The position numbers and the translations under genes were made by a program. Of a stretch of 44,989 nucleotides of DNA, positions 24,816 through 44,989 are shown one piece after another (the stretch's first letter is position 1; the number at the start of each line of letters is the position of its first letter). The notes beneath the pieces are model-generated. The model did no database searches. It was not told the origin of the DNA and saw only the letters and a program-made list of their open reading frames with translations. Location of the stretch: positions 1 to 44,989 of IMG/VR virus record IMGVR_UViG_3300017540_000270. The stretch is one strand, 5' to 3'. This stretch comes from a virus. Lineage: Duplodnaviria > Caudoviricetes.

Positions 24816-24816
24816 G

Positions 24817-25302: not shown

Positions 25303-25304
25303 CT

Positions 25305-26989: not shown

Positions 26990-27271
26990 CTAGATGTCGA
27001 ACAGGGCCTTGGAGACCTTGGCGGCTCGCTCGACGTCCGTGGACGAGATCGTGACGGTCCGGATGCGTCGCTCGTCACGGAGGTAGATGAGCTCGCTGTT
27101 CCCGGTGAGCCGGCGTACGGCACCGTTCGGGAAGTAGGCAAAGGCCGGGTCCGCGCCGGCGCCGACGCCGATGACGTAGGGCTCGGGGACGATTCGCTGG
27201 CGCTGCGCGGCCAGCTCGTCGTCGAGTCCCTTGATCGCCACGGCGATATCGCTGGTGGGAGTATCAGTCAT
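26990..27271 (-). CDS. Hypothetical protein downstream of the amidase
   Basis: Strong AAGGAGG RBS. Confidence 0.65.
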   Translation of the reverse strand: MTDTPTSDIAVAIKGLDDELAAQRQRIVPEPYVIGVGAGADPAFAYFPNGAVRRLTGNSELIYLRDERRIRTVTISSTDVERAAKVSKALFDI

Positions 27272-27284
27272 GAGGCTCCTCCTT

Positions 27285-27896: not shown

Positions 27897-28891
27897 GCTG
27901 AGACCACCATCAGTTGCGCGCGACGAGTTGGGTTTGCCAGCAGGTTTACGTTGTTCAAGCCTGCATGCGTCAGCTTGTACGTGTGTGATCCCGCCGATGG
28001 CGTGAGGCGCGTCTCAGCATAATGTGTGACCAGCCCAGTGCTCGGATGAAGTACCTGCGACATCGGAGACTCGACCGTTGAGCTGCCCTCCTTCAGGTCG
28101 AACAGGATCGTTTCCGTGGAACCCGTGTTCTGCAGGTTGAGGCGCGCCTTCACCAGGACAGGGCCGCCCAGTGCATCGAATGTCACCGACAGGCCCGCGA
28201 AGTCAGTACCGCTGGCAACGCCGTTCTGGTTGGTGGTTCGCTCAGCACTCGCGAGCACCTGACCAGGTACGTATCGCCAGGCTGATCCGTTCCAATACAG
28301 ACGCAAGCCAGTGTTGTCCTCGTAGATCTCTTGCCCCGCATGAGGCGATGTCGGCCGCGTTGTCGACGTACAGACGATCGTGCCGCCGACCGCTGCGGTG
28401 CGCTGGCGCACATCAGCGATATGAGCGTTCGTGATCGACGAGGCCAGCGCGGGCACCGTCACAACGGCGAGCTTGATCGCGTTGTTTGGCACGGCCGGCT
28501 CGGATGGTGTCGAGGCGGGCGTACCCGTGATGACCTCGAGTGCCCACTCGTTGCTAGAGCCAGAGTAGAAGGCGTCGTACACGCGAGCGATGATGATGTC
28601 CTTGCGCGGGTTGGTCGGGTCGGCAGCCGCGATTGTGAGGTTCTTCGTGGCGTCGTTCCAGACGAGGTAGCTGCCCTGCGTGATCGCGGCGTCGTCGCCG
28701 TTCACGGCCGCTCGGCCACCAGCGACATCGACCGACATGTTGGCTCCGGCGCCACGCTGGGTGACCTTGAGATCATCCTCACCGAAGACGCCCTCACGCC
28801 CGGCAAGGAGAGCGGTCAGGACCGCGCGGTCGTTCTCGGCAGTGTGGTCGATGCGGTTCTGCAGCCACAGACAGGGGTTGCGTTCAGCCAT
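27893..28891 (-). CDS. Minor tail protein
   Basis: NMSVDVAGG, ADPTNPRKDIII, ITNAHIADVR, GQEIYE. Confidence 0.8.
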   Translation of the reverse strand: MAERNPCLWLQNRIDHTAENDRAVLTALLAGREGVFGEDDLKVTQRGAGANMSVDVAGGRAAVNGDDAAITQGSYLVWNDATKNLTIAAADPTNPRKDIIIARVYDAFYSGSSNEWALEVITGTPASTPSEPAVPNNAIKLAVVTVPALASSITNAHIADVRQRTAAVGGTIVCTSTTRPTSPHAGQEIYEDNTGLRLYWNGSAWRYVPGQVLASAERTTNQNGVASGTDFAGLSVTFDALGGPVLVKARLNLQNTGSTETILFDLKEGSSTVESPMSQVLHPSTGLVTHYAETRLTPSAGSHTYKLTHAGLNNVNLLANPTRRAQLMVVSA

Positions 28892-28905
28892 TCGTGTGTG
28901 TCTCC

Positions 28906-29760
28906 TTAGATCCAGGCGTCGCGCCACTCAATAAAGGCGTACGCTGCGGCGTCGTAGGCATCGGCTCCGAAACGGATTTCGTTCGGGCCAGGCACGAGCT
29001 CCCAGAACTCGCCGGACTTGGCGAAGTACCTAGAAGCGGCTCCGCCCAGAAGGACAGTCGCTTCTGCGAAGTTGACGACGATGAACTCGCCAACGCCAAT
29101 GGTGTAGACGAGGCGCAGGCGTCGGTTCGTCGTGACGTTCTCGATGAACGGGTTCGTCACCGGCCCGTAGAAGGTCACAGTTGGCAGGGTGCCGATCGAA
29201 CCCTCATTCGTGATCGTCTGCACTCCGGAGGACCCCGACCCTCCGTACCCGTAGTTGAAGCTCTTGTTGTATCCGCGACCTGTCGTCGCGGTTGCGAGAG
29301 CAAGGGCTGTCTGGTGCTCGACGTCTGAGTACCAGCGCGGATCGGCCCCGAAGTACTCCAGCGTGCCATCGATCCTCGAGCCGATGATCCGGGCAGTCTC
29401 AAACGATGCCCGTCGTGGACGGCCGTGCAGACGCCATGTCTGCTGACCAGGGAGCCGCAGCATGAGCGGCTTGATGGCCGTCGTGTCCGTTCGTGTGTCG
29501 AGGTGCCACTCGCGCAGGAGCGCATTCAGCTTCATCACGGCGTCCGCCGGGTCATCACCGCGAATGGTGACGTCGATGCGGATGTCCCGTGAGTCGGGCA
29601 CGTCCGGCCCGAGGAAGCTGCCGTAGTCCTGCGGGCGCTGGCTGTCGCTGTTGCGGATGGACGGGATACCGAGGCCATCCCACTGGTGGACGATGTAGTC
29701 GCGGCCGGCTCCCGAGCCGCCAAGGATGATGTCGCCGATGCCCAGCTCGAACTCTTCCAT
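28906..29760 (-). CDS. Distal tail (Dit-like) protein
   Basis: Follows the tape measure gene; ADPRWY, GPVTNP, LVPGPNEI. Confidence 0.85.
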   Translation of the reverse strand: MEEFELGIGDIILGGSGAGRDYIVHQWDGLGIPSIRNSDSQRPQDYGSFLGPDVPDSRDIRIDVTIRGDDPADAVMKLNALLREWHLDTRTDTTAIKPLMLRLPGQQTWRLHGRPRRASFETARIIGSRIDGTLEYFGADPRWYSDVEHQTALALATATTGRGYNKSFNYGYGGSGSSGVQTITNEGSIGTLPTVTFYGPVTNPFIENVTTNRRLRLVYTIGVGEFIVVNFAEATVLLGGAASRYFAKSGEFWELVPGPNEIRFGADAYDAAAYAFIEWRDAWI

Positions 29761-29765
29761 AATGG

Positions 29766-32564
29766 CTATCGCCCCGTTGTCTTCATGGCCCAGCGCGCCT
29801 CGATGCCCGCCTGGCGAGCTGCCTCGTACGGGTCGAGCGCATAGATCGTCTGGTTGACCACCACGGCGGCGCCCTTGTCCTCGCCGCTGAGGGTGGCACC
29901 GTCCGGCAGCAGGCCGGCTTCGCGAAGGATGGCGGCGGCTCGACGCGGCCGCGTAAGAGGAACGACCGCCTCCTCACCAGCCTCGGCGATCTGCGCGAAC
30001 ACGGGCGAGCTGAAGATGCCTCCGTTCGCGAGGCGCAGGACGTTCCACATGTTGTCAGGTAGGCCGACCGTCTTCCGCACGGGACCAACGCCGATGGTGA
30101 AGTCCATCGCGTTCGTCTTCTCGTTGAGCCAGTCGATGACGCGGTTCCAGCCCGTCTTCAGGGCGTCCATCAGAGCGTCGGTGAACCCCTTGCCGATGTC
30201 GAACGCAGCGGAGGCGATTCCCTTCACGCCGTCGACGATGCCGCTGATGAACTTGCCACCGATGTCGAGGCCGGCCTGGCCGATGCCTGCCAGGAGCCGC
30301 CCGAGTCGGCTCGGCAGGTCGCGGATGAAGCCGACGATGGTGTCGACCGCGGTGCGCACCGATCCGGTGACACCGCGCCAGATGCCGGCAAAGGTGTTGC
30401 GCATCCCCTCCCAGATCTGGCGCCAGTCGCCGTTGATGATCCCGCGGATCACCTGGATGATCCCGCTCAGCGTCTGCAGGAAGCCCTCGACGATCGACTT
30501 GGCGACTCCGAACGCACCAGTGAAGACGCTCTTGACGGTGCTCCCGATGAGGGACAGGAGCGGCTGGGCCACATTCCAGAACCCCTGCAGCACCGAGACG
30601 ATCACTTCGAACGCCGCGACCACGACGACGCGCAGCTCCCAGATGGCGCTGACAACCCCCTGAATGATCGGGATGACGGCCGATCCCAGGACGGAGGCGA
30701 TCGTCGACGCCAGCCCCGTGAAGACGTCCGACAGCGTCTCGATGATCGGACCGCCGACGTCGACAGCGAGCTGGAACGCGGCCATGAAGTCACGGGCGAA
30801 CTTCGACGACAGGTCGCCCATGAGGCCCAGCGCTTCGCCGAAGACAGGCGCGACCCAGCGGACGAACCAGTCGACGATCGGCTGGACACCGCTGCGAACC
30901 GCCTGGAATCCACGGACTAGGCCGTTGAGCGCCGACTGAGCCACGCGCACCGCGCCCGCGGCCGCCTGCTGCATCGAGCGCCAAGCGACCGGCGCGAAGT
31001 CCCGCAGCCACTCAACCGCGGAGCGGAAGGCGCCCATGAGGAGCCGGGCGAGCGCGTTGACGGCCTCACGGAACGGCTCGAACCGCTGGTACGCCATGTA
31101 CAGCGTTCCCGCGAGGGCGATGAGGGGCGAGAACGCAGGCAGGAGCGTTGAGGCGATCAGGGACCCGATAGCGATCAGGACCTCCTGCAGGTTGTCCCGA
31201 AGGAACCGGACCACCGCGTCCACCGCGTTGCGGAACCATTCGATCCGCTGGTAGGCGATGTAGAAGCCAGCCGCCAGGGCCACGATCGCCGCGATCACAG
31301 GATGCGCAGCGATGAGGTTCAGCGCCGCACCGATGTTGCCGATGAGGCGGAGCATCGGCCCGAGCGCTGCGACGACGAGGGCGATGTTGATCGCCATCGA
31401 CTGAGCGCCAGGGCTCAGCGACTCCCATCCACGAAGGAGCGTCTCAGTGAACCCTGACACGCTTTCGACCAAGCGGGGCAGGACGCTGGCACCGATGTCG
31501 GTCCCGACGATCTTCACCCGGTTGAGCGCCTTGTTGAACTTGAACTCGGCCGTCTCGGAGGTCCGCTGGAAGGCCTTGTCCACGAGGCCGGTGGAGTTGC
31601 CCATCGCCTCGAAGATGCGGGCGGTGTTGCTCAGGTTCTCGCCCGTCATGATCGTCAGACCGTTGAAGGCCCGGATGTTGGGGAACATGTTGGCGAGGAG
31701 CTCGTCGTTGTCTCCGACCTTGTCGCGGAGGTCGACGAGAGTGGCGAGGAGGCCCTTCTCATCGATGCTCTTGCGGACCTCATCCGCGGACAGACCGACC
31801 TCGGCGAGGGCCTTAGCGACCTGCCTCGAGGGCTTGGCCAGGGTGAAGAAGACCTGCCGGAGGGCGGTGGCCGACTCGTCCGCGGACAGGCCGACGAGGG
31901 TCATGGACGACATCGCCGCCGCGACTTCGTCGAACGTGACGCCGAGCAGCTGGGCCGGGGCGATCACGCGGCCGATCGAGCCAGCGAAGTCCTCGGCCTC
32001 GCCCTTGCCCTCCTGCACCGCGCGGAGGAGGATGTCCGCTGCGTCAGCTGCCTTCAGGTTCTCGATGCCGTAGGCGTTGATGGCCGAGGTGAGCGCGTCC
32101 GCGACGGTCTGGGTGTCGCCGAGGCCGACGGCCGATGCCTTCGCCGACGCCTTGAGGACGTCGAGCGCGTGTGACGCATCGATGCCAGACGACGCGATGA
32201 AGTAGAGGCCTTCAGCGAGCTCGGCGGGGCTCTGCGGAAGCACGCGCGCGAGCTCAAGGACGCTCTCGGTCCATTCCTCGACCTGGGCGGACGACTCGCC
32301 AGCCAGCGTCTCGATCTTGACCATCGCCGACTCGAAGCTGGTGGCGAGGATGGCCGACGCGCCCGTCGCGTACGCGATCGGGAGCGTGAAGCGGCGGCTC
32401 AAGATCGAGCCGGTGGCGATGAGGCCCTGGGACGCAGCTGCGAGCTGCGTGTTCATGGCGCCGACCTGCCGCGAGAGCGCTGCAGACTGCGCCGCGGTGG
32501 CGTTGAAGGTCCGCGTCAGGTGCGACGTATCGCCGACGAACCGAAGGACTACCGGCCTGGCCAT
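29766..32564 (-). CDS. Tape measure protein (TP901-like core)
   Basis: 932 aa, Ala-rich; ELAEGLYFIASSG, W/F periodic repeats, EAGEEAVVPL. Confidence 0.93.
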   Translation of the reverse strand: MARPVVLRFVGDTSHLTRTFNATAAQSAALSRQVGAMNTQLAAASQGLIATGSILSRRFTLPIAYATGASAILATSFESAMVKIETLAGESSAQVEEWTESVLELARVLPQSPAELAEGLYFIASSGIDASHALDVLKASAKASAVGLGDTQTVADALTSAINAYGIENLKAADAADILLRAVQEGKGEAEDFAGSIGRVIAPAQLLGVTFDEVAAAMSSMTLVGLSADESATALRQVFFTLAKPSRQVAKALAEVGLSADEVRKSIDEKGLLATLVDLRDKVGDNDELLANMFPNIRAFNGLTIMTGENLSNTARIFEAMGNSTGLVDKAFQRTSETAEFKFNKALNRVKIVGTDIGASVLPRLVESVSGFTETLLRGWESLSPGAQSMAINIALVVAALGPMLRLIGNIGAALNLIAAHPVIAAIVALAAGFYIAYQRIEWFRNAVDAVVRFLRDNLQEVLIAIGSLIASTLLPAFSPLIALAGTLYMAYQRFEPFREAVNALARLLMGAFRSAVEWLRDFAPVAWRSMQQAAAGAVRVAQSALNGLVRGFQAVRSGVQPIVDWFVRWVAPVFGEALGLMGDLSSKFARDFMAAFQLAVDVGGPIIETLSDVFTGLASTIASVLGSAVIPIIQGVVSAIWELRVVVVAAFEVIVSVLQGFWNVAQPLLSLIGSTVKSVFTGAFGVAKSIVEGFLQTLSGIIQVIRGIINGDWRQIWEGMRNTFAGIWRGVTGSVRTAVDTIVGFIRDLPSRLGRLLAGIGQAGLDIGGKFISGIVDGVKGIASAAFDIGKGFTDALMDALKTGWNRVIDWLNEKTNAMDFTIGVGPVRKTVGLPDNMWNVLRLANGGIFSSPVFAQIAEAGEEAVVPLTRPRRAAAILREAGLLPDGATLSGEDKGAAVVVNQTIYALDPYEAARQAGIEARWAMKTTGR

Positions 32565-33016
32565 CAGCGAACTCCCGTGGGCGGGTTCGACTCAAGGTCG
32601 ATCGCGACCCGCGTGAGGAGCAGGTCCATCCGCAGCTCGATCTCGGGCCGCATCTCACGCAGCGTCGGGTAGACGGTGCGGCCCGACTTCACTCGCTCGC
32701 GGAAGGGCGGCGGCGTCTTGCTGTTGCCGCCGAACTCCCACCAGCCAGCCTGTGGCGACGAGCGCCCGAACGTGAGCTGCATCTCGCCCGTCTTGGTGGT
32801 GACGTGCAGGTCCTGGCGGAGCCGGCCGGTACGGCGCGACCGCGGGATCGTGAACGTCCGATCCATCTTCTGCCGGACGGACCGCTTCATCTCGGTGCCG
32901 ATCTCGCGAAGGGTTCGCGTGACCTCGGCGGGCGTGCGACGCTCCTCGCGACGAAGTGCTGCGCGGAACTCGGCGAGGCCATGCACCTCGATGCGCGGAG
33001 CGATCGCGCTCGGCAT
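32564..33016 (-). CDS. HK97 gp10-like neck/tail-completion protein
   Basis: IEVHGLAEF, RTGRLR, WEFG. Confidence 0.7.
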   Translation of the reverse strand: MPSAIAPRIEVHGLAEFRAALRREERRTPAEVTRTLREIGTEMKRSVRQKMDRTFTIPRSRRTGRLRQDLHVTTKTGEMQLTFGRSSPQAGWWEFGGNSKTPPPFRERVKSGRTVYPTLREMRPEIELRMDLLLTRVAIDLESNPPTGVR

Positions 33017-33032
33017 GACCTCACCTCCTTCC

Positions 33033-33235
33033 TCAGTACTTGTTGAGCTGTCGTCTCAGCTCGAATCGCTCTTGTGCTTCGTTCTGCGCGTCAGTGCGCT
33101 TCTTCAGGACCCGGACCACCGCGTCGAACAGCTGCGGCTCCCGCTCCGCGGTGCGGTAGAGCTGGCCCGGGTCGACGCCGAGCTCCACCGCCACGACGGC
33201 AATCAGCCAGGTTGCGGAGCCGGGACCGAAGGGTC
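33033..33235 (-). CDS. Tail assembly chaperone -1 frameshift extension
   Basis: The -1 frame is open across GAC-CCT-TCG (33228-33235) and continues PFGPGSATWLIAVVAVELGVDP. Confidence 0.55.
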
Positions 33236-33571
33236 CGCGGCGTTGTCCTCCTCGCCCTCGTCGATCATCTCGACGCCCTCGATCCGGTCCACGAAGTCGT
33301 CGTCGAAGGGCAGGTCCTTGGTGATGACACCCTGCCGGCGCAACGCGCGCCAGAACAGGAAGGCCAGCCACTCCAGCGCGACCTCGGCCTTCATGACCGG
33401 CTCGCCGCTCTCCTCATCGACCACCTGCTGCCCGTGCTCGTCGAGGACGGGCTTGGGCTCAAGGGCGGACGCCTTGAGGCCGAACTGGCGCTCGAAGGCA
33501 ACGAGGTCGCCGAAGCGCGGCTGATCGAGGACGTGCTCCTGGCCGTCGAAAGTGAGCTTGGTCTTCTGCAT
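33203..33571 (-). CDS. Tail assembly chaperone
   Basis: Between major tail and tape measure genes; DLVAFERQFG. Confidence 0.8.
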   Translation of the reverse strand: MQKTKLTFDGQEHVLDQPRFGDLVAFERQFGLKASALEPKPVLDEHGQQVVDEESGEPVMKAEVALEWLAFLFWRALRRQGVITKDLPFDDDFVDRIEGVEMIDEGEEDNAADPSVPAPQPG

Positions 33572-33671
33572 TGGGCCTCTCCCGTGGGCACGACAGGGTC
33601 AGGCCCAAGCTGGGCCTGCCTGCACTGGTTCTGTTGTCGAAGAAGTGGGGGTGTTGGCCGGACGGCCGGGA

Positions 33672-34634
33672 TCAGTAGGCGGCGGTGACGTCGTTCGACA
33701 GGACGAACGTGTAGGCGTCGCTGGCCGCAGGCTCCGCCACGGAACCCTCGAGGGTGAGCTCCACAGGGCCGCCCTGAGCGTTCGTCTCGGGGAACCCGAC
33801 GACCGTCTTCAGGCGGCTGGACTCGAAGGTGAGGTGGGTGTCGGGATCGACACGCCACTGGGCGCTGACAGCCCCGTACGTGGGGTTGCACGCGACCGCG
33901 GAGCCAGCAGGCGCACCGGTGAGGGTGCGGCGGAACTCCTGCAGGTTGTCAGGGACGATGGTGAGCGAGACGTCGACCGTCTGCACCTGCGGGAAGACAT
34001 CCTTCGGGAGGACGCTGTCAGAGCCGTAGATCGGCTCGATGCCATTGGAGACCTTGATCGAGCCGCTGCGCACGATGGCGCTGGCGCCGTTCACGGTGAA
34101 TGAGCCACCGCAGCCCTTGAAGACGCCAGCCTGCGGGCGCTCGTCGGCGTCCGCCGTGTACGGCGCACCCAGGAACTCGTAGGTGCAGCCGCCCATGACG
34201 ACCTTCACGCGGAGCGCTCCGGTCTGCTCCCAGGAGAGCTCCAGCTCGTTGACACGCGCGTCGGACACCTTGAAGTACTCAGCGTCCTTGCGGGCGAACA
34301 AGCTGAGGTACGGGAGCGACAGCGCGTGCTTGAAGGTGTGGACGTAGGGACCGGAGCCAGTCACCGCGTCCTGACCGCAGGCAGCCTGGAGCAGCGTGCC
34401 GATCGACTTCGGGAGCGCCAGCGTCTCGAAGTCGGCGCCGGGGTAGACCGCCGTGCGATCGTGGCCCTGGATGAGCCGGGAGGCCCAGGTGATCGGCAGG
34501 TCCTCCTCCGACACTTCGGCGTTGGTCACGGCGCCGCTGTTCACGCCCAGCTGGTAGGCAGCGGTCGCAGCGGCCGCGCCCTTGGCGTTCTGCTTCGCGA
34601 TGCCGACCTGGGTGATCCGGTTCTGGATGGGCAC
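33672..34634 (-). CDS. Major tail protein
   Basis: 320 aa, beta-rich; GPYVHTF; position in tail module. Confidence 0.85.
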   Translation of the reverse strand: MPIQNRITQVGIAKQNAKGAAAATAAYQLGVNSGAVTNAEVSEEDLPITWASRLIQGHDRTAVYPGADFETLALPKSIGTLLQAACGQDAVTGSGPYVHTFKHALSLPYLSLFARKDAEYFKVSDARVNELELSWEQTGALRVKVVMGGCTYEFLGAPYTADADERPQAGVFKGCGGSFTVNGASAIVRSGSIKVSNGIEPIYGSDSVLPKDVFPQVQTVDVSLTIVPDNLQEFRRTLTGAPAGSAVACNPTYGAVSAQWRVDPDTHLTFESSRLKTVVGFPETNAQGGPVELTLEGSVAEPAASDAYTFVLSNDVTAAY

Positions 34635-34638
34635 GCTG

Positions 34639-34830
34639 TCAGCGCTCCTTCACTCGCTCGGCGGCGCCGCTGGGCGCCAGCATGTGCTCGAGGACGAACC
34701 ACTCGTCCTCCGTGTCGGGCCGCGCAGTGCCGGCCGGGAAGCTGAAGCGGACCTCGCGGCCATCGCGGTCTGCGAACGAGACCTCGATGTCCTCGAAGAC
34801 CGTGTAGACCGGGAACTCCAGCTCGTCCAT
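34639..34830 (-). CDS. Hypothetical protein
   Basis: ATG 7 nt after the TACAAT of a motif copy. Confidence 0.65.
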   Translation of the reverse strand: MDELEFPVYTVFEDIEVSFADRDGREVRFSFPAGTARPDTEDEWFVLEHMLAPSGAAERVKER

Positions 34831-34831
34831 C

Positions 34832-34851
34832 TGTCTCATTGTACCATGACG
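34832..34851 (-). promoter_or_regulatory. Conserved promoter/operator motif copy (leaderless)
   Basis: Minus strand CGTCAT-GGTACAAT-GAGACA-G-ATG. Confidence 0.7.
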
Positions 34852-34853
34852 CT

Positions 34854-35726
34854 CTAGACGACTCGTCGGACCGCGTAGCGGTTCACGGCACCGTCGACCT
34901 CAGGCAGACCGGTCGGCCGGTCCCAGCTCGGCGTCGAGAAGCTGATGATGGCGCTCTCGGTCTGGACTGACCGCGCGCGCTCCGGGTAGTTGCTCCCGCG
35001 GGCGACGTACCGCGCGAGGGTGACCGCCGCGTTCACGAGGTCAGCGGGGACGCCGTGGTCGAACTCCGGCGACGGCCCGTGCGTGATCCAGACCTCCTTG
35101 CGGCCCATCGCCCACACCATCTGGTGCTGGCCGACGAGGAAGTCCCAGTGGATGAACGCCGTGAACTCGAACGCACCGTCCACGACCTCGACCTCGGCCA
35201 GCCTGTCGGCAGGCACCTCGGTCTCGCCCTCGATGGCCCGGACCATCCGCCGCGGGTAGAGCGCGCCGGGCACGATCAGCCGCGAGCCGCCTGGGTGGTT
35301 GAACACGGTGTGCAGCGGCTCCTCGCAGTACGGGAAACCGAGGGCGTTGTTGAACCAGCTCTCCACCGCGTCGGCGAGGCGCAGCAGGTTCGGCGCGGAC
35401 AGGCCGGCGAGCTCCGGGTCCTCGCGCAGTCGCCAAAGCGGCACCAGCCGCTCGGACACAACGACCGCTGTCGTCTCGCTGGTCCGCGTGTGGCCATCGA
35501 CGACCGCCTGCCAGGTGATCGTGAGCACGTCCAGGTCGCTCTGTGGCGGGATGATCGCCTTGTACACGCCCGTCGTCTCCGATGTGACCGCGGAGACGCC
35601 AGACACCACGTCCCCGCTGCCGTTGGTGACGGTCAACGTGGGCGTGGTGTCCGCAGCGACGAGAGCTCCGCCCTCGTCATCGACATGCAGCCGGACGACG
35701 ATCTCGCGGTTGCGGATCGCCCTCAT
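34854..35726 (-). CDS. Head-to-tail adaptor with an Ig-like N-terminal domain
   Basis: TTGVYKA strand; VPADLVNAA...TGLPEVDGAVNRY. Confidence 0.75.
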   Translation of the reverse strand: MRAIRNREIVVRLHVDDEGGALVAADTTPTLTVTNGSGDVVSGVSAVTSETTGVYKAIIPPQSDLDVLTITWQAVVDGHTRTSETTAVVVSERLVPLWRLREDPELAGLSAPNLLRLADAVESWFNNALGFPYCEEPLHTVFNHPGGSRLIVPGALYPRRMVRAIEGETEVPADRLAEVEVVDGAFEFTAFIHWDFLVGQHQMVWAMGRKEVWITHGPSPEFDHGVPADLVNAAVTLARYVARGSNYPERARSVQTESAIISFSTPSWDRPTGLPEVDGAVNRYAVRRVV

Positions 35727-35729
35727 GCG

Positions 35730-35882
35730 CTAGTCGGGATCGATCACGCCGGCAGCCCGAAGGGCTGCGATGACCTCGTTGACCTTCTCCTCCAGCTCGG
35801 TGACCGTGGAGCTCCCGTCAGCGGGAAGGTCCTCGATCGCCGAAGCGGGGAAGAACTGGTTCTTGTCGGGATCGAAGGCCAT
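35730..35882 (-). CDS. Head-fiber/decoration-like small protein (50 aa, not in ORF track)
   Basis: TGATG coupling; VTELEEKVNEVIAALRAAGVI. Confidence 0.6.
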   Translation of the reverse strand: MAFDPDKNQFFPASAIEDLPADGSSTVTELEEKVNEVIAALRAAGVIDPD

Positions 35883-36085
35883 CAGGCGTCACCATCCTTC
35901 TTGGGGCGCCCACGGGCGGGCTTGGCGGGCTCGGGCTCCTCGGCCTCACCGGCCGGGGCATCGCCGAGGACGCCCAGGGAGCGGGCCTCCTCGACGGTGA
36001 CCTCCTGGCCGGCGAACGCCGCGAAGTAGCTCGTCCCGTTGTCATGCCGGAGGATCACGTCCTCCTTGAGGACGACCGTCTCCAC
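35882..36085 (-). CDS. Hypothetical protein downstream of the capsid gene
   Basis: GTG just after the capsid stop; RGRPKK tail. Confidence 0.6.
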   Translation of the reverse strand: METVVLKEDVILRHDNGTSYFAAFAGQEVTVEEARSLGVLGDAPAGEAEEPEPAKPARGRPKKDGDA

Positions 36086-36087
36086 GA

Positions 36088-37368
36088 TCAGAACCCGGTG
36101 AGCTGGCAGAATGCCTTGGGCTGCAGGAGCGTGGCGGCAGCCCGGAACTCGGCCAGCAGGGCGACAAGACCCTTCAGGAAGAAGTCCGCGTGGCTGTCGC
36201 TGGCAGCGACGCTGATGCCAGTCCGCATCCACATCACGTACTGGCTGTAGTCCCCGACGAGCGGGTTGCCGGGCGTGAAGAGGGTGCTGACGACCGGGGT
36301 CAGGCCCCAGATGGTCCGGATGTCCTCGGCGCTGCGCCCGTGGACGTAGTTCCCGTTGGCGTCCTTCTCCAGGACGACCGACTCGAAGTCGGTCGGGTGC
36401 ATGCCGATGACCGACGGCTCGTCCTCGTAGTTGATCCGGACGTTGGTGATCGCCTTGTGCACGGCGTCGAAGCGGGTGTCGGAGCCCAGCGCCTGCGCGC
36501 CGATGCCGACCGTCTGCAGGATGCCCCGCAGGTTCTCACCCGTGCCGTCGCCGACGAGCGCCTGGCGCTCGGCCTCGAGCCGCAGGCCCTTCACGAGCGA
36601 CGTCTCGAGGAGCGTCTTGAGCTGCCCGGAGTCCATGAGCGCACCCTTGGTGGCGGGCACGTGATGCGGAATCCGCTTCACGCTCGTCGAGTCCTTGGTG
36701 TAGCCGTAGCTCGCCTCGGGAGCGGCGGTGCCGTAGGGCGTGGGCGCGGCGGCATGGGTCCGCGTGGTCTCCCGCACGAACTCCACCGTGTCGCTGTCGG
36801 TCTCGCCGATCGTGATGACGTCGAGAAGGCGCACGCGCCGCTCGGGCATCGGGACGATCAGGTTCTCCAGCCGGTCGGACCAGATGACGCCGCCGCCGGA
36901 GCCGGCCGCGTTCGTGACCGTGGCGCGCAGGCGCAGGAGCTCACGCGCGGCGTCGCGCGTAGCGACCTCCACGGGCGCCATCTCGACGCGGGCCTGCGAC
37001 ATCTCCAGGACCTTCGAGTCGCGGAGGGCCTTGAGCTCGGCGGAGCGGAGCAGGGCCTCAGCGATCGAGCGGGCCTCGCGGGTCCGCGAACCCTTGCGCT
37101 CCTCCTCGTCGGCCTTCTCGCCGACGCGCCGCATCGTGGCGTCGAGGCGGGAGCGGAGCTCGCTGACCTCATCGCGCAGGGCGTCGGCCGGCTTGTAGGC
37201 CGAGTCGACCTGCTCGTAGGCGTCCTTGTCGACCAGCGGGTTGATGCCCTTGGCCTTCAGGTCGGCGACCACCTGGTCGGCAGCCGCGCGCAGCCGGGTC
37301 TCCTCGGCCGCCTTGCTCTGGATCGTGGAGCGAAGCTCGACGATCTCCTTCTCCAGGTCCACGGTCAC
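36088..37368 (-). CDS. Major capsid protein (HK97 fold, N-terminal scaffolding-like segment)
   Basis: GDGTGENLRGIL, KDANGNY, IWGLTPV, FLKGLVALLAE. Confidence 0.95.
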   Translation of the reverse strand: MTVDLEKEIVELRSTIQSKAAEETRLRAAADQVVADLKAKGINPLVDKDAYEQVDSAYKPADALRDEVSELRSRLDATMRRVGEKADEEERKGSRTREARSIAEALLRSAELKALRDSKVLEMSQARVEMAPVEVATRDAARELLRLRATVTNAAGSGGGVIWSDRLENLIVPMPERRVRLLDVITIGETDSDTVEFVRETTRTHAAAPTPYGTAAPEASYGYTKDSTSVKRIPHHVPATKGALMDSGQLKTLLETSLVKGLRLEAERQALVGDGTGENLRGILQTVGIGAQALGSDTRFDAVHKAITNVRINYEDEPSVIGMHPTDFESVVLEKDANGNYVHGRSAEDIRTIWGLTPVVSTLFTPGNPLVGDYSQYVMWMRTGISVAASDSHADFFLKGLVALLAEFRAAATLLQPKAFCQLTGF

Positions 37369-38051
37369 GTGCGGTTCTGCTCCTCGTCGGTTTCGTTACC
37401 GGTGTTCCACTGTACCATGACGCTCAAGGCTTCACGGACGGCGGGGTTGCTGAGGAGGCTCCAAGCCTCCTCGAGGATGGCGGGATCGTCCGCCTCACTC
37501 CGATCCTCGTTGCTCTCCTGGGACTCGGCAGCTGCGAGGCGGACGTCGTCGATCGTGGCGGCGCGAACCGCGATCATCTCGGTGTTCGCGGCACCGCGGA
37601 CGACGACGCTGGCCTCCAGCACCTCGCCGCGGTCCACGTGCTCCAGGTTGCGGAGCTCCTGGTCCTGACGGACCTCGTTGGCCACGTAGCCCAGGCTCCA
37701 CTCACGCAGGCCGCCCTCCTTGGCGGCGAGCCACACGGCCTTCGCCTCGGGTAGGTCGTCCACGAACAGCTTCGCCTCGACGCGCAGGCCGTGCTCGTCG
37801 CTCTTGGCGCGTGCGACCCCGATGGGCGGCTGCGGCGTCCCCTTCACCGAAGTCCACGTGTGCTCCCAGAAGACGGGGATCACGTTGTCCTGCGCGGCGA
37901 GGCTGTCGTCGAAAGCCCCGCGGGTGATCGACTCGAAGGCCTTGTCGCCGATCTGGTACGGCGAGTCGTACACCGTGGCGTAGCCGACCAGGACGCCCTC
38001 GCCCTCCTCGGGCATGGCGCGGAACTGGACGGCGAGTCGGCGAGGCTTCAT
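37365..38051 (-). CDS. HK97-family prohead protease
   Basis: GYATVY, GAF, FWEH, WSLGY, EASVV..AAN. Confidence 0.92.
   Translation of the reverse strand: MKPRRLAVQFRAMPEEGEGVLVGYATVYDSPYQIGDKAFESITRGAFDDSLAAQDNVIPVFWEHTWTSVKGTPQPPIGVARAKSDEHGLRVEAKLFVDDLPEAKAVWLAAKEGGLREWSLGYVANEVRQDQELRNLEHVDRGEVLEASVVVRGAANTEMIAVRAATIDDVRLAAAESQESNEDRSEADDPAILEEAWSLLSNPAVREALSVMVQWNTGNETDEEQNRT
37403..37422 (-). promoter_or_regulatory. Motif copy inside the protease 3' end, upstream of the capsid gene
   Basis: Minus strand CGTCAT-GGTACAGT-GGAACA. Confidence 0.65.
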
Positions 38052-38054
38052 CAG

Positions 38055-38074
38055 CGTCTCACTATACCATGTCG
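38055..38074 (-). promoter_or_regulatory. Conserved promoter/operator motif copy
   Basis: Minus strand CGACAT-GGTATAGT-GAGACG-CTG-ATG. Confidence 0.65.
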
Positions 38075-38395
38075 TCCATGCTGCCAGAGACAATCGCGGA
38101 GCCCTGCGAGTCGTCGGCGAGCCTGTTCAGCAGCTCAGCGAGCTGCGTTCGAGCGACGTCGACCCCTGGGAGGATGGGGCCGAACCCTCGCCCTTCGGCT
38201 GAGCGGACGAGCCACGTGCAACCGTCCAGGTCACCTCGCACGCGGGCTTCGGCACGCAACGGGTCAGTTTCCCCTGCGTGGCGGGCGCACCAGCGGTATC
38301 GGGAGCAGGTGCAGCGCCTAGACATCGACGTCGCCCCCCCTGACTGCCAGAGAGTGCTGTCCTGGTCTTGGTGAGGACAACGCCGTAGCCGTGCA

Positions 38396-38698
38396 TCAGC
38401 GGCGGATCGGCGGCTCACCCGTGAGTTCGTCGAGCCCGGCGTCTTGGGAGATAGCGGCGATCTCGTCAAGGGCGATGATGCGCTGAAAGCGCCGCAACTC
38501 GGCCCGCAGCCGCTCGTTCTCGACATCCAGGTGCTCGATACGGTCGGCCTCCTCGCTCAGCGCCTCCCGCAGCCGGTCGATCTCAGCGAGGGCCGACTGC
38601 AAGTCCCTCGCCCACCCGTTGACAACTGGGCTGAACGAGGCCAGCCCGAAAGTGACGCGGCGACCAAGGCGCTCTCGGTCGAAGTCTTCAGTCGTCAT
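38396..38698 (-). CDS. Hypothetical coiled-coil protein
   Basis: AAGGAG RBS; starts MTTEDFDRE; ALDEIAAISQDAGL. Confidence 0.6.
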   Translation of the reverse strand: MTTEDFDRERLGRRVTFGLASFSPVVNGWARDLQSALAEIDRLREALSEEADRIEHLDVENERLRAELRRFQRIIALDEIAAISQDAGLDELTGEPPIRR

Positions 38699-38714
38699 GG
38701 GGGCTCCTTGGGGG

Positions 38715-41522
38715 TCAGGCGGCGGTGCCGGGCAGCGACGTGGGCCAAGGCGTCGACGATGCGGCTGGGAAGTTGATGGACTGCTGACGGATGGCGCCGT
38801 CTGCGCCCGCCGACGAGGATGCGCCCCGCTGCAACGTGCCGTTATTCGCGACAACGAGGCTGCTGACCGACGAGCTGCCGATGACCACGGGCACCAGGAC
38901 CGAGTAGGTAGGCCGGAAGCCCGCTGGAAGGGCATAGGACGACCAGACGTTCACGTCGGTGACGCCGGTGCGCTCCAAGAAGTTGACCTGCACGGTCACG
39001 AGGTCCACGGTGCGGCGAACGAAGATGCCCCCGCCGGCCCCAGACATGGGAGCCCACGATCCAGAGTTGAGGGCCTGCCCGGTGACGACCCCAGCCGCGT
39101 CCCAGGTCGTGATGGCACGCCACCCGGTGTCGCCCCACACCACCCGCCAGCCGGTGTTTCCGGTGCCGGACGCCTTGACCCACGTGACGGCACCGTTGGT
39201 GGCGGCGAGGTCGCGATAGAGGGTGCCGACGGGGGCGGCCACCACACCCTGGGGAGAGCCGGTGCCCTCGATCATCGCCGGCCCTGTCGTCAGGGCACCT
39301 AGCGCGGGCTGGGCGCGGAGAAGCGTCGCGAGCGCGTTGGGGGCCCGACCAAGCAGGGTCGAGCCGGGGTCGACGCCGAGCACAGCGGCGACGGCGGCAA
39401 TCTCCTCGTCCGACAGGGCGCGGGGGAACACGGCGGCACCGAGCCACTCGCCGTCGAACGTGTGCGAGGAGCCGGAGCCGACAGAGTCCGCGCCGATGCG
39501 GAGCACGCCCGTGTTGGCGGGGGACCCCTCCGACGCGATGCTGGCGCCTGTGTTGCGAGCGTCGACGCTGAATGCATAGAGCCGCTGGGCCGCACGGTCG
39601 ACGATCTCGGCGGCCGACGTCGCCACGCCCGCGGGGCTGATCGCGATGCTCGTGTGGACGAACGGGGAGACGTTGTCGGACAGGCGGGCCTCGACCGTCG
39701 TCGGGCCGAGCCAGAGCCCGTACTGCGGGTCGGTCGCGGACGATGCGGCCCGCTTCACCATGAGCATGTCGTTGCCGTCCGGGGTGCCGTGCCGTCGGTA
39801 CGCGGTGATGAGCGTGAAGGAGTCCGCCGCGCCGAAGGCCAGATCGGGGGCGTCCGGGGTCTGCATGTATGACCCGCCGAACAGGAACAGGGACCGGTCG
39901 ACGACGGCAACCTTCTTCCCGGAGGTGGGGCGTGAGATGGTCCACGTGCGGCCGCCCGAGTTGCCGCCGGTCTGGCCCATGTCGGACGCGCGCCACGAGA
40001 CGACCTCGGTCCCGTTGCCGCTGACCGTAAGGCTGTAGACCTTGCCGCCGATGTTCTGCGTGACGCCGAGCCCGATGCCGGAGATGTTTAGCGGCGCGGT
40101 CGGTGCGTGGACAGCCACGGCAGAGCCGGTGACCGTCGCTCCGATCTGTGCCCACGCGGAGCCGGTCCACCGGGACACCTTGAGCCACCGACCGCCGGCG
40201 CCGTCGTTGAGGAGGAACTCGACCTTGAGCCGCTGTCGGCCCGACAGCCCAAGGGGGGCGGTCGTCTGCGCCGCTGGGACGGTCGTCCCATCCGGGGAAT
40301 GGAACAGGGCAAGCGCCCCGGACGGCGTGATCTGTAGCGCCCAACTCTGCTGACCGGAGGACCACTGCGAGGCGAAGGTCTGCGAGCCCGACGTCCACGA
40401 GTCGAGCGCCATGTCCACCTCAACCGCGACCTGCACGGTCGCTCCGATCCATGCCGAGATGTTGTCGCTGATGATCCGATTCCCGGCGACAGCCGGGAAG
40501 TAGACATACGGCTCGCCGTCGTAGGGCAGGAAGGTGGGAGCGGCCGAGCCGGCCCCGAGGGTCATGTCGTGGCCGCGGCCGGAGCCGTCCGCGAGCACAC
40601 CCGTGCCGTCGTAGTCCGCGGCCCGCCACCACGCGACCGCGTCGCGCATGATCCCGCGGCGTAGCGCCTCCCGGTCAGCCGCCCCACCGTCGACCACACC
40701 CTCGGCGATCCCGGCGATGTCCGGCCTGCCTGTCAGGTCGGCGTACGCGCCGGAGGAAGCGACCGGGGCGAGCCCGAGCGTCGACCTGGCGGCGCCGGCG
40801 TTCGCGATCGCGAGCCACGACTTCGCCCACGCGGTGAGGGTCGCCCCAGACAGCTCGTCGAGCGTCGCGTCCTTGTCCTGCTTGCCGGCGAGCGCGGCGG
40901 ACAGGTCCGCCGGCTGCACCGCGGTGTCGGCCTTGGCCCCCTGCGCGGCGCTGGCGAAGTCGCTGACATCCGCCGCCGCCGCAGACCCCAACGTCGGAAG
41001 GCCGGTCAGGTCGGCGTACGCGCCCGACGTCGCGACCGGCGCGAGCGAGGGCGTGTTCTCGAGGTCGGAGTACTCGCCGGACCTAGAGACCGGGTGGAGG
41101 TCATCCAGCTCCTGGTGAGCTGCGTCAGCCTTCGCGTCGACCGATGCGATCTGAAGGACGAGCAGGTTCAGGCCGGGCGGGTCGATCGCACCAGGCGGGT
41201 CCGCCATGATGTCAGCGGCGTCGACGGGGCCGGGCACGTCCGGGACGATCCAGTAGGCGACGTCGCGCGACCCATCCTCGAAGGTGACGGTCCGCTTCCA
41301 GACGGTGCCGGAGGGCTCGATCAGACTGTTCGGCACGAGGTCGATGCTGATGAGGCCGCTGGGCGACAGCGCAAACCGCCGGGATGTGACGATCGTCTGG
41401 CCAGCCGCGTGAACGTAGCCGGTAATCGGCTTGCCGTCCTCGCCAGCGAGAACGACGGACACGTGCCTCACACGGGCCGGTGCGCCGCCCGGCGCCACGT
41501 ACGTCTCGCGGACGATCGTCAC
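38715..41522 (-). CDS. Large virion fiber/minor structural protein with LamG-like lectin domains
   Basis: VATSGAYADL repeats, two LamG-like beta domains, GTGSPQGVVAAPVGTLY; coupled to the portal stop. Confidence 0.75.
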   Translation of the reverse strand: MTIVRETYVAPGGAPARVRHVSVVLAGEDGKPITGYVHAAGQTIVTSRRFALSPSGLISIDLVPNSLIEPSGTVWKRTVTFEDGSRDVAYWIVPDVPGPVDAADIMADPPGAIDPPGLNLLVLQIASVDAKADAAHQELDDLHPVSRSGEYSDLENTPSLAPVATSGAYADLTGLPTLGSAAAADVSDFASAAQGAKADTAVQPADLSAALAGKQDKDATLDELSGATLTAWAKSWLAIANAGAARSTLGLAPVASSGAYADLTGRPDIAGIAEGVVDGGAADREALRRGIMRDAVAWWRAADYDGTGVLADGSGRGHDMTLGAGSAAPTFLPYDGEPYVYFPAVAGNRIISDNISAWIGATVQVAVEVDMALDSWTSGSQTFASQWSSGQQSWALQITPSGALALFHSPDGTTVPAAQTTAPLGLSGRQRLKVEFLLNDGAGGRWLKVSRWTGSAWAQIGATVTGSAVAVHAPTAPLNISGIGLGVTQNIGGKVYSLTVSGNGTEVVSWRASDMGQTGGNSGGRTWTISRPTSGKKVAVVDRSLFLFGGSYMQTPDAPDLAFGAADSFTLITAYRRHGTPDGNDMLMVKRAASSATDPQYGLWLGPTTVEARLSDNVSPFVHTSIAISPAGVATSAAEIVDRAAQRLYAFSVDARNTGASIASEGSPANTGVLRIGADSVGSGSSHTFDGEWLGAAVFPRALSDEEIAAVAAVLGVDPGSTLLGRAPNALATLLRAQPALGALTTGPAMIEGTGSPQGVVAAPVGTLYRDLAATNGAVTWVKASGTGNTGWRVVWGDTGWRAITTWDAAGVVTGQALNSGSWAPMSGAGGGIFVRRTVDLVTVQVNFLERTGVTDVNVWSSYALPAGFRPTYSVLVPVVIGSSSVSSLVVANNGTLQRGASSSAGADGAIRQQSINFPAASSTPWPTSLPGTAA

Positions 41523-42832
41523 TCGGTCTCCTCCGACTCGTCATCATCGGCCGGCTCGTCGGCCGGCTCGTCGGGCTTCAGCGGCGGCGCGATCCCGAGG
41601 TAGGCGCCGCCCGGCGTGACGGCCACGGTGTCGGCCTCGGGGTACTCCAGCTTCGGGAGGCCGACCTTGCGACGCCGCTCGTTCGTGGTCATCGTCGTCT
41701 CGAGGTCCTTGAAGGCCTTGCCCATCGCCTCCAGGTCGGGACGCAGGTGCTCGTCCAGGTCGAACTGCACGTAGTGGTAGCGCAGCGACGGGTTGGGGTC
41801 GATCAGCTGCGCCTGGATGTCGTCCTCGAAGGCCGGCGCCCAAGCACCCACCACGTCGCGAATGAACTGCTCGCGCAGCTCGCGCACGTTCGACTGGATG
41901 GCCCGGTCGAGGATGCCGAGGACTGGCGGCGGGATGCGGAAGACGCCCGCGATCTCCTCGCGGGAAAGCTTGATGAGCTCAACGATCTGCGAGTGATCGT
42001 GCTGCGCCGTGAGCGGCTGGAAGTCGGCCGTAGTGACCAGGACCTTCCCGGCGTTCTCGGGCGACGTGTAGAGCTCGCGAATGAGCTCCTGCATCGTCTT
42101 GATCGCCTCGGGCTTGGCGCCGGGCTGCAGCTTGAAGTTGCCGCTCGGACGAGCCGCGTTCTGGAAGAAGGAAGTGAGGTGCCGCGCCAGCGCCTCGTGC
42201 AGCGCGAGCGTGTGCTGCAACGCCTCCATCGGAGGCACGCCGAGCGGGCTGTCCGGGTCGTCGCCGGCCGAGAAGTGGATGACGTCCTCAGGCGCGAAGA
42301 AGCGAGAATCCTTGGTGCCGACCACCTCGTAGGTGAGGATCGGCACGTGGTCACCCTCGTGCACGCGCACCTTGCGCCACGGCACGTACGTCAGTGCTCC
42401 GTCCTGCACGCCGACCCACAGGGCGTTGCCGAAGATCAGGTACTCGGTCGCGGTGGCGCGCATCCGGCGCTGCGGACCCATCCGGTTCGGCGCGGTGTTG
42501 AGCTTCCTCGCCAACTCGCGACCCGCGCTGGGCCGGCCAGCTCCGGAGGGCACGTCGTGGCGGTAGCGGATGATGTCCTCGTCACTGATCCGCTCGAACA
42601 CGCCCAGCGCCGAGCGCGACAGCCCCCATGCGGTGGTGCGGATCGCCGCGTTGACCCAGGGGTTCTCCTTGTACAGGCGCTTGTAGGTGGCGTACCGGGC
42701 GGTGCCGGTCGCCGAAGTCGTGAGCCGCACGCCGTTCGACCCCTGGCTGATCTGGCGCGGCCAGTCAAGCTCCGCGAGGGGCCAGCGATCGCGCACCTTC
42801 ACAAGTTCGCCATCAGGGGTGAGGAGCCGCAT
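41519..42832 (-). CDS. Portal protein (HK97 family)
   Basis: FGNA, EDVIHF, LGVPPM, FFQNAARPSG, EIAGVFRIPP, TTNERR. Confidence 0.95.
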   Translation of the reverse strand: MRLLTPDGELVKVRDRWPLAELDWPRQISQGSNGVRLTTSATGTARYATYKRLYKENPWVNAAIRTTAWGLSRSALGVFERISDEDIIRYRHDVPSGAGRPSAGRELARKLNTAPNRMGPQRRMRATATEYLIFGNALWVGVQDGALTYVPWRKVRVHEGDHVPILTYEVVGTKDSRFFAPEDVIHFSAGDDPDSPLGVPPMEALQHTLALHEALARHLTSFFQNAARPSGNFKLQPGAKPEAIKTMQELIRELYTSPENAGKVLVTTADFQPLTAQHDHSQIVELIKLSREEIAGVFRIPPPVLGILDRAIQSNVRELREQFIRDVVGAWAPAFEDDIQAQLIDPNPSLRYHYVQFDLDEHLRPDLEAMGKAFKDLETTMTTNERRRKVGLPKLEYPEADTVAVTPGGAYLGIAPPLKPDEPADEPADDDESEETE

Positions 42833-42836
42833 CGTG

Positions 42837-42856
42837 AGTCTGATTGTACTATGACG
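42837..42856 (-). promoter_or_regulatory. Conserved promoter/operator motif copy
   Basis: Minus strand CGTCAT-AGTACAAT-CAGACT, upstream of the portal ATG. Confidence 0.7.
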
Positions 42857-43067
42857 CGGACGCGGTAGGATGGTCCCCGAAGGGTCCTCCCACCCGGGTG
42901 GCGGTTCTCAGCGTGTTCGTGGTGGTCCGCGCTGAGGCCGCCACTTCTGGTTCCTGGCCGAACAGCCGAACGAGCTTGGCGACCACCGACGGGGACAGCT
43001 CCGGATCTAGGCCGTGCTCCTCGCGGAGCTGCGCGTACGCCCTGCGGGCATCGTTGGTGGTCGCCAT
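42849..43067 (-). CDS. Small protein downstream of the integrase (recombination directionality factor candidate)
   Basis: Has its own motif copy; REEHGLDPELSPSVVAKLVRLF. Confidence 0.5.
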   Translation of the reverse strand: MATTNDARRAYAQLREEHGLDPELSPSVVAKLVRLFGQEPEVAASARTTTNTLRTATRVGGPFGDHPTASAS

Positions 43068-43070
43068 GAC

Positions 43071-43090
43071 CGTCTCACTGTACCGGAACG
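43071..43090 (-). promoter_or_regulatory. Motif copy overlapping the integrase stop
   Basis: Minus strand CGTTCC-GGTACAGT-GAGACG-GTC-ATG. Confidence 0.6.
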
Positions 43091-44442
43091 GGCGTCAGGC
43101 GTCCAGGGTCGAACCGCGCGCCCGGCCGGCCCTCCCTCACGCCGATGCGGTCGAAGATGGCTTGGACCACCTGCCGGCGCCACGCGACGTCATCCCGGCG
43201 CTCCCACTCTGCGAAGACGTCCCGCGCGGCCACGCCGTGCAGCGGCCCGCGCTGAGCGGCAACCGCGACGCGCCGCTCCAGCGCCTCAGCCTCCTCGCGG
43301 AGCTTCGCGCTCGCAGCCTGGAACGCTGGCCGCGGGATGAGGCCCGCCGCGTAGTCCTCTCCGAGTTCTGCCATTCGTTGTTCAACTTCGTGGAGCTTTC
43401 GCATCGTGTCGCCCTCAGCGCTCGACGCGTCGCGGCCCACTTGCAGCGCTCGCACGACCTCGGGCCGTTCGAGGGCTGCGAAGGTCAGCTGCGTGATCCA
43501 CTCCTCGGTGCGGTCGGCGTTGATCGCCCGGCCACAGCCGTTGTACGGCGCCCAAGTCGGACAGCGGTACGTGCGCTCCTTGCCTCGTGGGTGCCCGACC
43601 ATCTTCGAGCCGCACCCCTCGCAGATGAGCAGGCCGGACAGGAGGTACGAGCGTTTCCCGACCCATTGGGTCCGCTTCGCCTTCACGAGCGCCTCGTGCG
43701 TCGCGCGGTCGAGGATCGGCTCCCAGCTGCCTTCGCCGATGACCTCGCCCTTGTAGACACGCAGGCCGGCCAGGCGCGGGTTGCGCAGCATCCGCAGCAG
43801 CATCGCAGGCGACCATCGGTTCCCGGCGGTCGTGAGCCTACCGGCCTCGTTCCACTCCTTCGCGATGGCGTACGCCGACTCGCCTTCCATGATTCGCCGC
43901 GCGGCGTCTCGGATCGCGTCGGCCTCGTCGGGCACGAGCTCCATCTGGTGCGTGTACCCGTAGCCACGCTTGCCGCCCGAGCTAGGCAGGCCGTGCTCCG
44001 CAGCGAATCGCCGAGCGGACTTCACACGCATCCCGATCGTGGCGCCCTCCAGCTCGGCGAACACCGCGAGCACCTGCATGATCGCTCGGCCGATCGGGCT
44101 CGAGGTGTCGAAGGGCTCGTTGACCGACACGAGGGCGACGCCATGCTTGTCGCACAGGTCCGCGAAGCGAAGGAACTCCCGCAGGTTCCGGGCAAGGCGG
44201 TCAATCTTCCAGATGACCACCGCGTCGGTGTCGCCGGCCTTGACGCGCTCGATCATCGCCTCGTAGCCCGGCCGGCGCACGCCCTGGCGGTAGGCTGAGA
44301 AGTCGACGTCCTCGTGGACTTGGACGACGTCCCAGCCCTTCGCCTCGGCCAGCCGTACGCAGTCCCGGCGCTGCCGGGTGGTGCTCGTCTGGTCCTCACG
44401 GTCCCGGCTCAGCCGGGTGTACACGTCGCAGCGCATCGCCAT
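43075..44442 (-). CDS. int: Large serine recombinase (integrase)
   Basis: YTRLSRD catalytic Ser, RPGY, KIDRLAR, recombinase domain, LLICEGCG...YRC zinc ribbon, coiled coil. Confidence 0.96.
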
Positions 44443-44480
44443 GAACGATACCGTACATAGCGTCACTTTGATCTGGATGA
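44443..44480. other. Prophage-host att junction (crossover about 44469-44473)
   Basis: The conserved NucS ...KPLNWM reads VTLIWM here; sequence left of TGG (44474) is lower in GC and not NucS-like. Confidence 0.75.
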
Positions 44481-44989
44481 ACGCGCCCAACCGCCTCGTC
44501 GAGGGCGAGGGCACCTGGACGGTCACGAACCCCAAGGGCGAGCGGCTCGTCATCACGATGGAGGAGGTGCTCTCCGACGTCACCCACGACCTGGGGGTGG
44601 ACCCCGGGCTCCAGAAGGACGGCGTCGAGGCCCACCTGCAGGAGCTTCTCGCCGCCGCCTGCCATGAGCTGGAGGAGGGCATGGTCCTCGTCCGCCGGGA
44701 GCACCGCACCGAGATCGGGCCCGTCGACCTGCTGTGCCGGGACGCCCAGGGCCGCGCCGTCGCCGTCGAGGTGAAGCGCCAGGGCGGCATCGACGGGGTC
44801 GAGCAGCTGGCCCGGTACCTCGAGTTCCTCGACCGGGACCCCACCCTGCGCCCGGTGCGGGGCATGTTCGTGGCCCAGGTCATCCGCCCGCAGGCCAAGG
44901 CCCTCGCCGCCGAGCGGGGCATCACCTGCGTGGAGGTCGACTACGACGCCCTGCGCGGCATCGAGTCCGCCCAGGCCAGGCTGTTCTGA
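44474..44989 (+). pseudogene. nucS: 3' fragment of host endonuclease NucS/EndoMS, interrupted by the prophage
   Basis: [45 protein letters not shown]; roughly the first 45-50 aa are missing. Confidence 0.92.

Follow-up and report, generated by a model that had tools for sequence, protein, structure and literature searches.

NucS is the mismatch repair route of most Actinobacteria, and mobile elements that alter mutation rates are known for MutS and MutL. The closest described case is SpyCI of Streptococcus pyogenes, a site-specific element in a mismatch-repair gene that is 13–20 kb long, lacks capsid genes, occupies the 5′ end of mutL, blocks transcription and cycles with growth, its integrated state being a predicted mutator and its precise excision restoring the gene, according to the excerpts cited (PMC4129442, PMC3430984). 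A second group comprises the mutS elements of Vibrio splendidus 12B01 and other Proteobacteria, many of which share one conserved amino-acid motif as attB and which, in the cited passages of PMC5296598, keep mutS working while integrated, the mutator arising in 12B01 when excision scars mutS. The third consists of gene-disrupting prophages with large serine integrases, which have a three-domain integrase, a short core, a central dinucleotide and a conserved coding target (PMC10083194, in part), with comK and spsM/SPbeta among the cases given in the relevant section of a review (PMC13492144).

The prophage analyzed here shares all of these traits with the third group, and with SpyCI it shares the site-specific position in a mismatch-repair gene, the predicted mutator state of the integrated form and the precise excision that would restore the gene. 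Unlike SpyCI, it measures 44.6 kb, carries capsid and tail genes and cuts the nucS coding sequence at codon 49; none of the features of a SpyCI-type island (small size, lack of a capsid, location in mutL) was found in it. A first-pass annotation of the window (the whole stretch of 44,989 nucleotides that was analyzed) had proposed a reversible mutator switch after the examples of S. pyogenes and Vibrio, but the Vibrio analogy turned out to be inverted, as no replacement part is supplied by the prophage and its predicted polarity is thus the reverse. The replacement promoter and 5′ part that mark gene-sparing elements of the mutS type were absent from the prophage and present in three other inserts at the same codons (G139, G392 and G645). 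The annotation knew of no equivalent described for nucS, and our literature search agreed with it, finding no element inserted in this gene (subscription papers and bioRxiv supplements lay outside the search); nucS is not named in the text portions or the eight supplementary files of PMC10083194, in which targets may lack gene names, nor in the portions of PMC5296598 and PMC13492144 that were covered.

The virus record that forms the window has been trimmed, and its last base is the final base of the nucS stop codon. The NucS fragment at its right end matches residues 47–219 of a full-length NucS of 219 aa (P0124) at 91%, its identity starts within the L-N-W-M codons, and a gap of 30 bp separates it from the start codon of the integrase, which bears out the observation that the integrase adjoins a nucS gene lacking its 5′ part, with the break at the KPLNW motif. 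The annotation's reading depended on a 5′ half at the other prophage end, and this half was found on the parent contig (360,263 bp), beyond the left end of the window, at locus L162, matching residues 1–52 of P0124 at 98% (E 1.5e-30). L162 was the sole locus matched by an exact search with the first bases of the window, and its positions 10001–20025 are identical to window positions 1–10025. Upstream of the 5′ half lies a kinase-like frame (a label from reading the sequence; NCBIfam gave no family), and the host flank was 78–82% similar to the sequence around an intact nucS at each of 12 related loci (12 of 12). Exactly 9 bp, and nothing longer, are common to both junctions (CTGGATGAA), a word that is unique within the window and 10 kb of left flank. 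The halves joined in silico gave 219 codons with no stop, identical to P0124 at 204 of 219 positions, so that excision would restore the gene, as had been claimed. P0124 scored 351 bits on NF002876 (cut-off 252), and the rejoined NucS, aligned to EndoMS of T. kodakarensis (5GKE), contained the binding residues as well as the RecB-like nuclease motif of a full-length actinobacterial NucS. Misassembly or chimerism was rejected, since a 46,004-bp contig of run X1, assembled independently, spans both junctions with no difference over the stretches compared (X1 is possibly the source sample, and its contig is not a second lysogen), and the attP form was present in two other studies. The anatomy of the split is solid: both halves exist, which supports a site-specific integration. 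As the nearest named homologs of this 219-aa NucS came from Acidimicrobiales and other Actinomycetota bins, the host was probably an uncultured member of Acidimicrobiia. Coordinates of all features are collected in Table 1.

Table 1. Features of the prophage, the split nucS gene and comparable insertions. Positions refer to the window unless a locus (L) is named.
Feature	Position	Strand	Remarks
Prophage body	1..44472	.	44,648 bp core to core, including the arm left of the window
HTH repressor-like gene	225..695	-	near attL
Terminase genes	5491..7724	-	large subunit 5491-6966, small subunit 7185-7724
WhiB-family transcription factor	9387-9689		E 3.5e-13
Replication block	11090..21226	-	primase, C5 methyltransferase-like, SSB, Sak4, exonuclease, helicase, DNA polymerase A
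Predicted cytosine-modification cassette	21216..23474	-	thymidylate synthase homolog, dNMP-kinase-like gene, DUF7768 protein
Candidate endolysin	27285..27896	-	weak Amidase_2 match, E 0.053, below cut-off
Virion genes	29766..42832	-	portal, protease, major capsid, head-tail adaptor, tail tube, tape measure
72-aa ORF directly behind integrase	42849..43067	-	its position alone makes it a candidate directionality factor
Large serine integrase, 455 aa	43075..44442	-	Resolvase, Recombinase and Zn ribbon domains
Phage arm of attR	44443..44472	+	between integrase start and core; joined to left phage arm (attP) in X3 and X8
attR core	44473..44481	+	9 bp, also present in attL; crossover predicted at the TG dinucleotide, 44474-44475
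3′ part of host nucS	44474..44989	+	codons 49-219, covering the nuclease domain plus the C-terminal tail
5′ nucS half	L162 9682-9833	+	319-168 bp left of window base 1; parent contig
attL core	L162 9825-9833	+	left of the window
Integrase-less inserts at codons 48-49	L219 2330-6054 (G139), L220 1663-6735 (G392)		diverged replacement start
235-aa HNH homing-endonuclease-like gene at PLNWM codons	L300 1501-3036 (G645)		followed by complete recoded nucS
Island of at least 16 kb from nucS codon 49	L221 1836-15788 (G386)		far end unassembled

All three domains of the integrase passed the Pfam cut-off (Resolvase E 8.8e-36, Recombinase 2.7e-15, Zn ribbon 5e-10), while the best matches among the integrases of isolated phages were only 30–35% identical; a tree showed only that P0001 and the integrase relatives P0004–P0007 (63–74% identity) form a supported clade. 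The predicted crossover dinucleotide is formed by the first and second base of the Trp49 codon. Crossover sites of serine integrases are expected to be symmetric about the central dinucleotide; around TG, 13 of 24 mirror pairs were counted in attP (at most 8 at 11 other positions tested) and 8 of 24 in attB, which is not clearly symmetric (best value elsewhere 11). We infer that this TG is where the integrase carries out recombination between attP and attB, and the attL and attR forms, together with a natural attP, are consistent with such a predicted activity. The ORF behind the integrase had one homolog (73%), located on a contig equal in size to that of a 70% integrase relative, and no usable match in the ESM Atlas.

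With the 9-bp core and the intact 219-codon frame, attB and attP were rebuilt, as the annotation had suggested, and the predicted attP junction was present on contigs of other samples. In compost run X3, a 6,527-bp contig follows window positions 41001–44481 with 51 differences in 3,481 bp, and a second 6,527-bp contig of equal depth follows L162 9825–10300, its loose end being the integrase-side arm and thus the predicted attP. The same attP junction was found in run X8, which belongs to a different study, on a 438-bp contig (17 differences in 303 bp). Both attP contigs are from related phages and do not represent excision from this lysogen; when the X3 phage was compared with the window, 39 of the 49 typed changes were transitions, counts that have no direction and were not used as mutation evidence. 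Run X8 additionally contained two contigs identical to the host 5′ nucS, one of which continues 147 bases beyond the core; in addition, three contigs have a loose-end consensus that begins like the 3′ nucS half, so an intact attB is likely in a near-identical host.

Integration separates the first 49 residues from the rest of the NucS N-terminal domain. In T. kodakarensis EndoMS, the aligned counterparts of Tyr12, Asn48, and Trp49 are Tyr41, Asn76, and Trp77 (numbering counted from the alignment), residues that bind the flipped mismatch bases and form the base-recognition site (PMC6829318, cited section), and the N-terminal domain of NucS is described as also forming the dimer (PMC8228993, in part). 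The 5′ frame of the lysogen encodes 56 aa, reaching a stop after seven codons beyond the crossover codon, while a 170-aa 3′ fragment could begin at Met50 (44477). Ahead of Met50, neither a Shine-Dalgarno-like word nor, in a scan for the strict sigma-70 consensus, a promoter-like site was seen, and a profile of 44 NucS N-termini, run against all six prophage frames, picked up no substitute for the 5′ half (best E 0.63). We infer that the 56-aa and 170-aa pieces cannot rebuild a mismatch-binding, dimer-forming N-terminal domain.

The family of G003 was taken as the nearest family-level sample; the host flank and nucS are 78–91% similar to it at best (G434 being nearest), and it consists of 80 incomplete bins, three of them unpublished (G430, G415, and G422). 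NucS was detected in 76 of the 80 genomes, and MutS_I and MutL_C in none (control genomes were positive in 11 of 14 cases); NucS has also been reported in Ilumatobacter coccineus of the same class (PMC5290159, in the section cited). Judging from these 80 relatives, NucS was probably the only mismatch repair of the host. Where nucS was lost, mutation rates rose strongly in Mycobacterium smegmatis (about a hundredfold) and in Corynebacterium glutamicum, in which 526 of 530 mutations were transitions (excerpts of PMC5290159 and PMC6159521), but the effect of its deletion on resistance rates was minimal in M. tuberculosis (PMC12892979, in part).

The reading we favor, with a probability of roughly 0.58, is that nucS serves as a docking site for which no replacement start is provided, that the lysogen is likely without a working NucS, and that a transition-mutator state would follow as a side effect. 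The element has the look of a complete siphophage, its open frames including genes for packaging, head, tail, replication, and a repressor; gene calls were made with PHROGs and Pfam on 54 ORFs, with six rescanned, Dit was also among the matches, no holin was identified among the ORFs of the prophage, and the G+C content was 67.6% versus 72.7% in the host flank. The 44.6-kb phage genome, which encodes a large serine integrase, sits at the Trp49 codon, and because it brings no substitute for the cut-off start, the lysogen would likely make no working NucS and is a predicted mutator, which the lack of both MutS and MutL in all 80 relatives (0/80) makes plausible. The mutator state would be a by-product of a convenient docking site. 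Excision would rebuild nucS exactly; in the case of a complete phage, however, lysis would mostly follow it, so that reversal at the level of the cell would come mainly through occasional curing and not through a scheduled switch. Considered across all readings, a mutator state of the lysogen is a sound and fairly probable prediction. Of the proposed mutator switch, the mutator lysogen is thus plausible, while no sign of a regulated switch that the host survives was seen; a regulated switch is possible but unlikely. The nucS gene of the lysogen carries 4 private transitions and 19 transversions, similar to 11 relatives and with mostly synonymous differences, and shows no decay and no mutator trace, which is a weak test given that its 657 bp are dominated by pre-integration history.

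In Acidimicrobiia, insertions recur at the PLNW codons of nucS, some splitting the gene and others sparing it. In the class sample, NucS was present in 296 of 401 genomes, 15 of which were examined further and at least three had a junction at codons 48–49 (G139, G392, and G386); the order sample (NucS in 250 of 401, 20 examined further) gave at least one more (G645). These samples overlap, and the counts hold among the matches listed, with 158 and 120 further matches, respectively. None of these four genomes is flagged as unpublished; the class, order, and phylum tallies and one more include unpublished ones (G259, G394, G280, G217, G584, G678, G504, G1053, and G1099). Among 35 genomes with double or weak NucS matches, 31 were set aside by match coordinates (breaks at contig ends, neighbouring pieces of the frameshift type, additional copies, or weak matches to paralogs), and G750 proved to be a 55-bp contig overlap.

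The inserts in G139, G392, and G386 leave nucS at most one base after the same TG, and the sequence following the junction is common to them at 41–47 of 60 bases, versus 14–17 of 60 with the arm of this phage. In G139 and G392, an orphan 5′ copy is followed by approximately 3–4 kb of cargo without a serine integrase and then by a complete nucS, the start of which matches the orphan at 82% and 73%, respectively; about 30 bp of upstream sequence were duplicated too in G139. The insert of G645, which shares a TGTA word after the junction, had been a candidate scar of a related integrase and was dropped as such, being an HNH homing-endonuclease-like gene. The island of G386 encodes a short serine recombinase, a DprA-like protein, a cytosine methyltransferase and Vsr. 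Vsr belongs to a family of nucleases acting on G:T mismatches. With an orphan 5′ copy, cargo and a replacement start, the inserts of G139, G392, and G645 have the layout of the mutS elements (PMC5296598, cited section). A replacement 5′ half is thus supplied in three of the four other insertions, which suggests that the loss of NucS is costly. The repeated use of the PLNW codons is sufficiently explained by their being among the most conserved of the gene: the 20-nt window on TG ranked 7th of 638 in conservation (36 gap-free genes of 40 loci), and this integrase adds a target core that is exact in 22 of the 36 related nucS genes. The likely reason for its use is that few stretches of this single-copy, non-essential gene are as conserved.

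A wider targeting of nucS by related integrases, which the annotation had recommended surveying, did not emerge. No nucS fragment lay beside related integrases at 160 loci, among the matches listed (two chance matches had E 0.44 and 0.65), nor at a set of 36 loci (30 new, with 1.5-kb flanks for those) or at 129 loci; the integrases at all surveyed loci were at most 48% identical, the relatives P0004–P0007 being outside the survey. Junction patterns gave 0 matches in viral contigs, and another scan gave 120, none with an integrase or nucS nearby; no nucS relative was found in viral contigs, and five phage records had full-length NucS-like matches, none of them split.

Among the alternatives, the one that survives best is that the split is real and has little or no mutator effect, either because another nucS copy exists, because the fragments reassemble, or because NucS is of minor importance in this lineage. 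M. tuberculosis offers a precedent (PMC12892979, in part), two full-length NucS copies occur in 2 of the 76 family genomes, Met50 is in frame just past the crossover, the 4 versus 19 changes in the lysogen nucS contain no excess of transitions, and a SpyCI with a promoter rescuing mutL is on record (PMC3430984, cited passage). We consider this reading unlikely, as the cut passes through the binding and dimer domain, the scans ahead of Met50 gave no promoter-like site (strict sigma-70 consensus) or Shine-Dalgarno-like word, and the three inserts mentioned above carry a replacement 5′ half at these very codons.

Less well supported still is active lysogeny, in which non-lytic excision and reintegration under host or growth control would toggle NucS as SpyCI does with mutL (PMC4129442, in part). 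The scar-free excision in silico, the lack of decay in either nucS half, the phage's own replication genes and the small ORF behind the integrase would fit it, but intact halves are equally compatible with a recent integration, and the prophage has full virion genes, unlike SpyCI. Furthermore, run X1 contained only the integrated form among the matches listed, with no attP or same-host attB contig (in assembled contigs, from which rare forms drop out), and no lysogen split at codons 48–49 was found in 76 family or 133 phylum genomes with NucS (all matches listed), whereas SpyCI is reported in 9 of 16 S. pyogenes genomes (PMC3430984, excerpt). That the phage acts as an on/off switch of NucS, which would be the first control of non-canonical mismatch repair by a mobile element, is rather improbable. 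If it did, actinobacterial lysogens would be transition mutators with looser recombination, scar-free excision would return them to high fidelity, and the site would be a nucS hotspot at which other elements have come to leave the gene working. The exact att sites, the intact rejoined gene and the natural attP make this a question that plasmids in a laboratory actinobacterium could answer.

The first-pass annotation had also speculated that deamination of modified cytosine would generate the mismatches cut by NucS, and of this idea the part that stands is its basis in gene content, i.e., the predicted cassette. The thymidylate synthase homolog is nearest to the CMP hydroxymethylase MilA (E 3.4e-21) and has Asp at both specificity positions, which is described as marking the use of dCMP and a non-methyl product (PMC13326640, in part), and the DUF7768 protein has a weak nucleotide-modification-associated domain. 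Cytosine modification by this phage is predicted because the MilA-like synthase with both Asp residues adjoins the kinase-like gene. That the phage itself gains from removing NucS, its modified DNA and recombination intermediates escaping double-strand cuts at G:T- or G:U-like mismatches, would draw on this cassette, on the Sak4 recombinase and on the reports that an archaeal NucS cuts uracil-containing DNA and that NucS limits homeologous recombination (PMC8228993, cited passages), but it is doubtful, given that excision restores nucS exactly when phage DNA is made, that a fresh lytic infection faces an intact nucS, that bacterial NucS needs the host clamp (PMC6159521, in part) while the phage has its own polymerase, and that the other elements at the site lack such a cassette in the DNA seen.

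Several further observations concern the gene content of this temperate phage. A divergent C5 methyltransferase-like gene (13522–14715) accompanies the predicted cytosine-modification genes. In the circular phage, the stretch from terminase to portal holds the repressor, a plus-strand cluster of small genes of unknown function, attP and the integrase (1–7724 and 41519–44481), so that integration breaks the usual run of packaging genes. A plus-strand frame of 150 aa (24850–25302), rich in Thr and with a hydrophobic N-terminal stretch, runs against the surrounding gene direction and possibly encodes a membrane protein expressed in the lysogen. Between the portal and head protease genes lies a fibre-like gene of 935 aa with mostly unknown domains (38715–41522), within which a 46-bp stretch near 41000–41046 is repeated.
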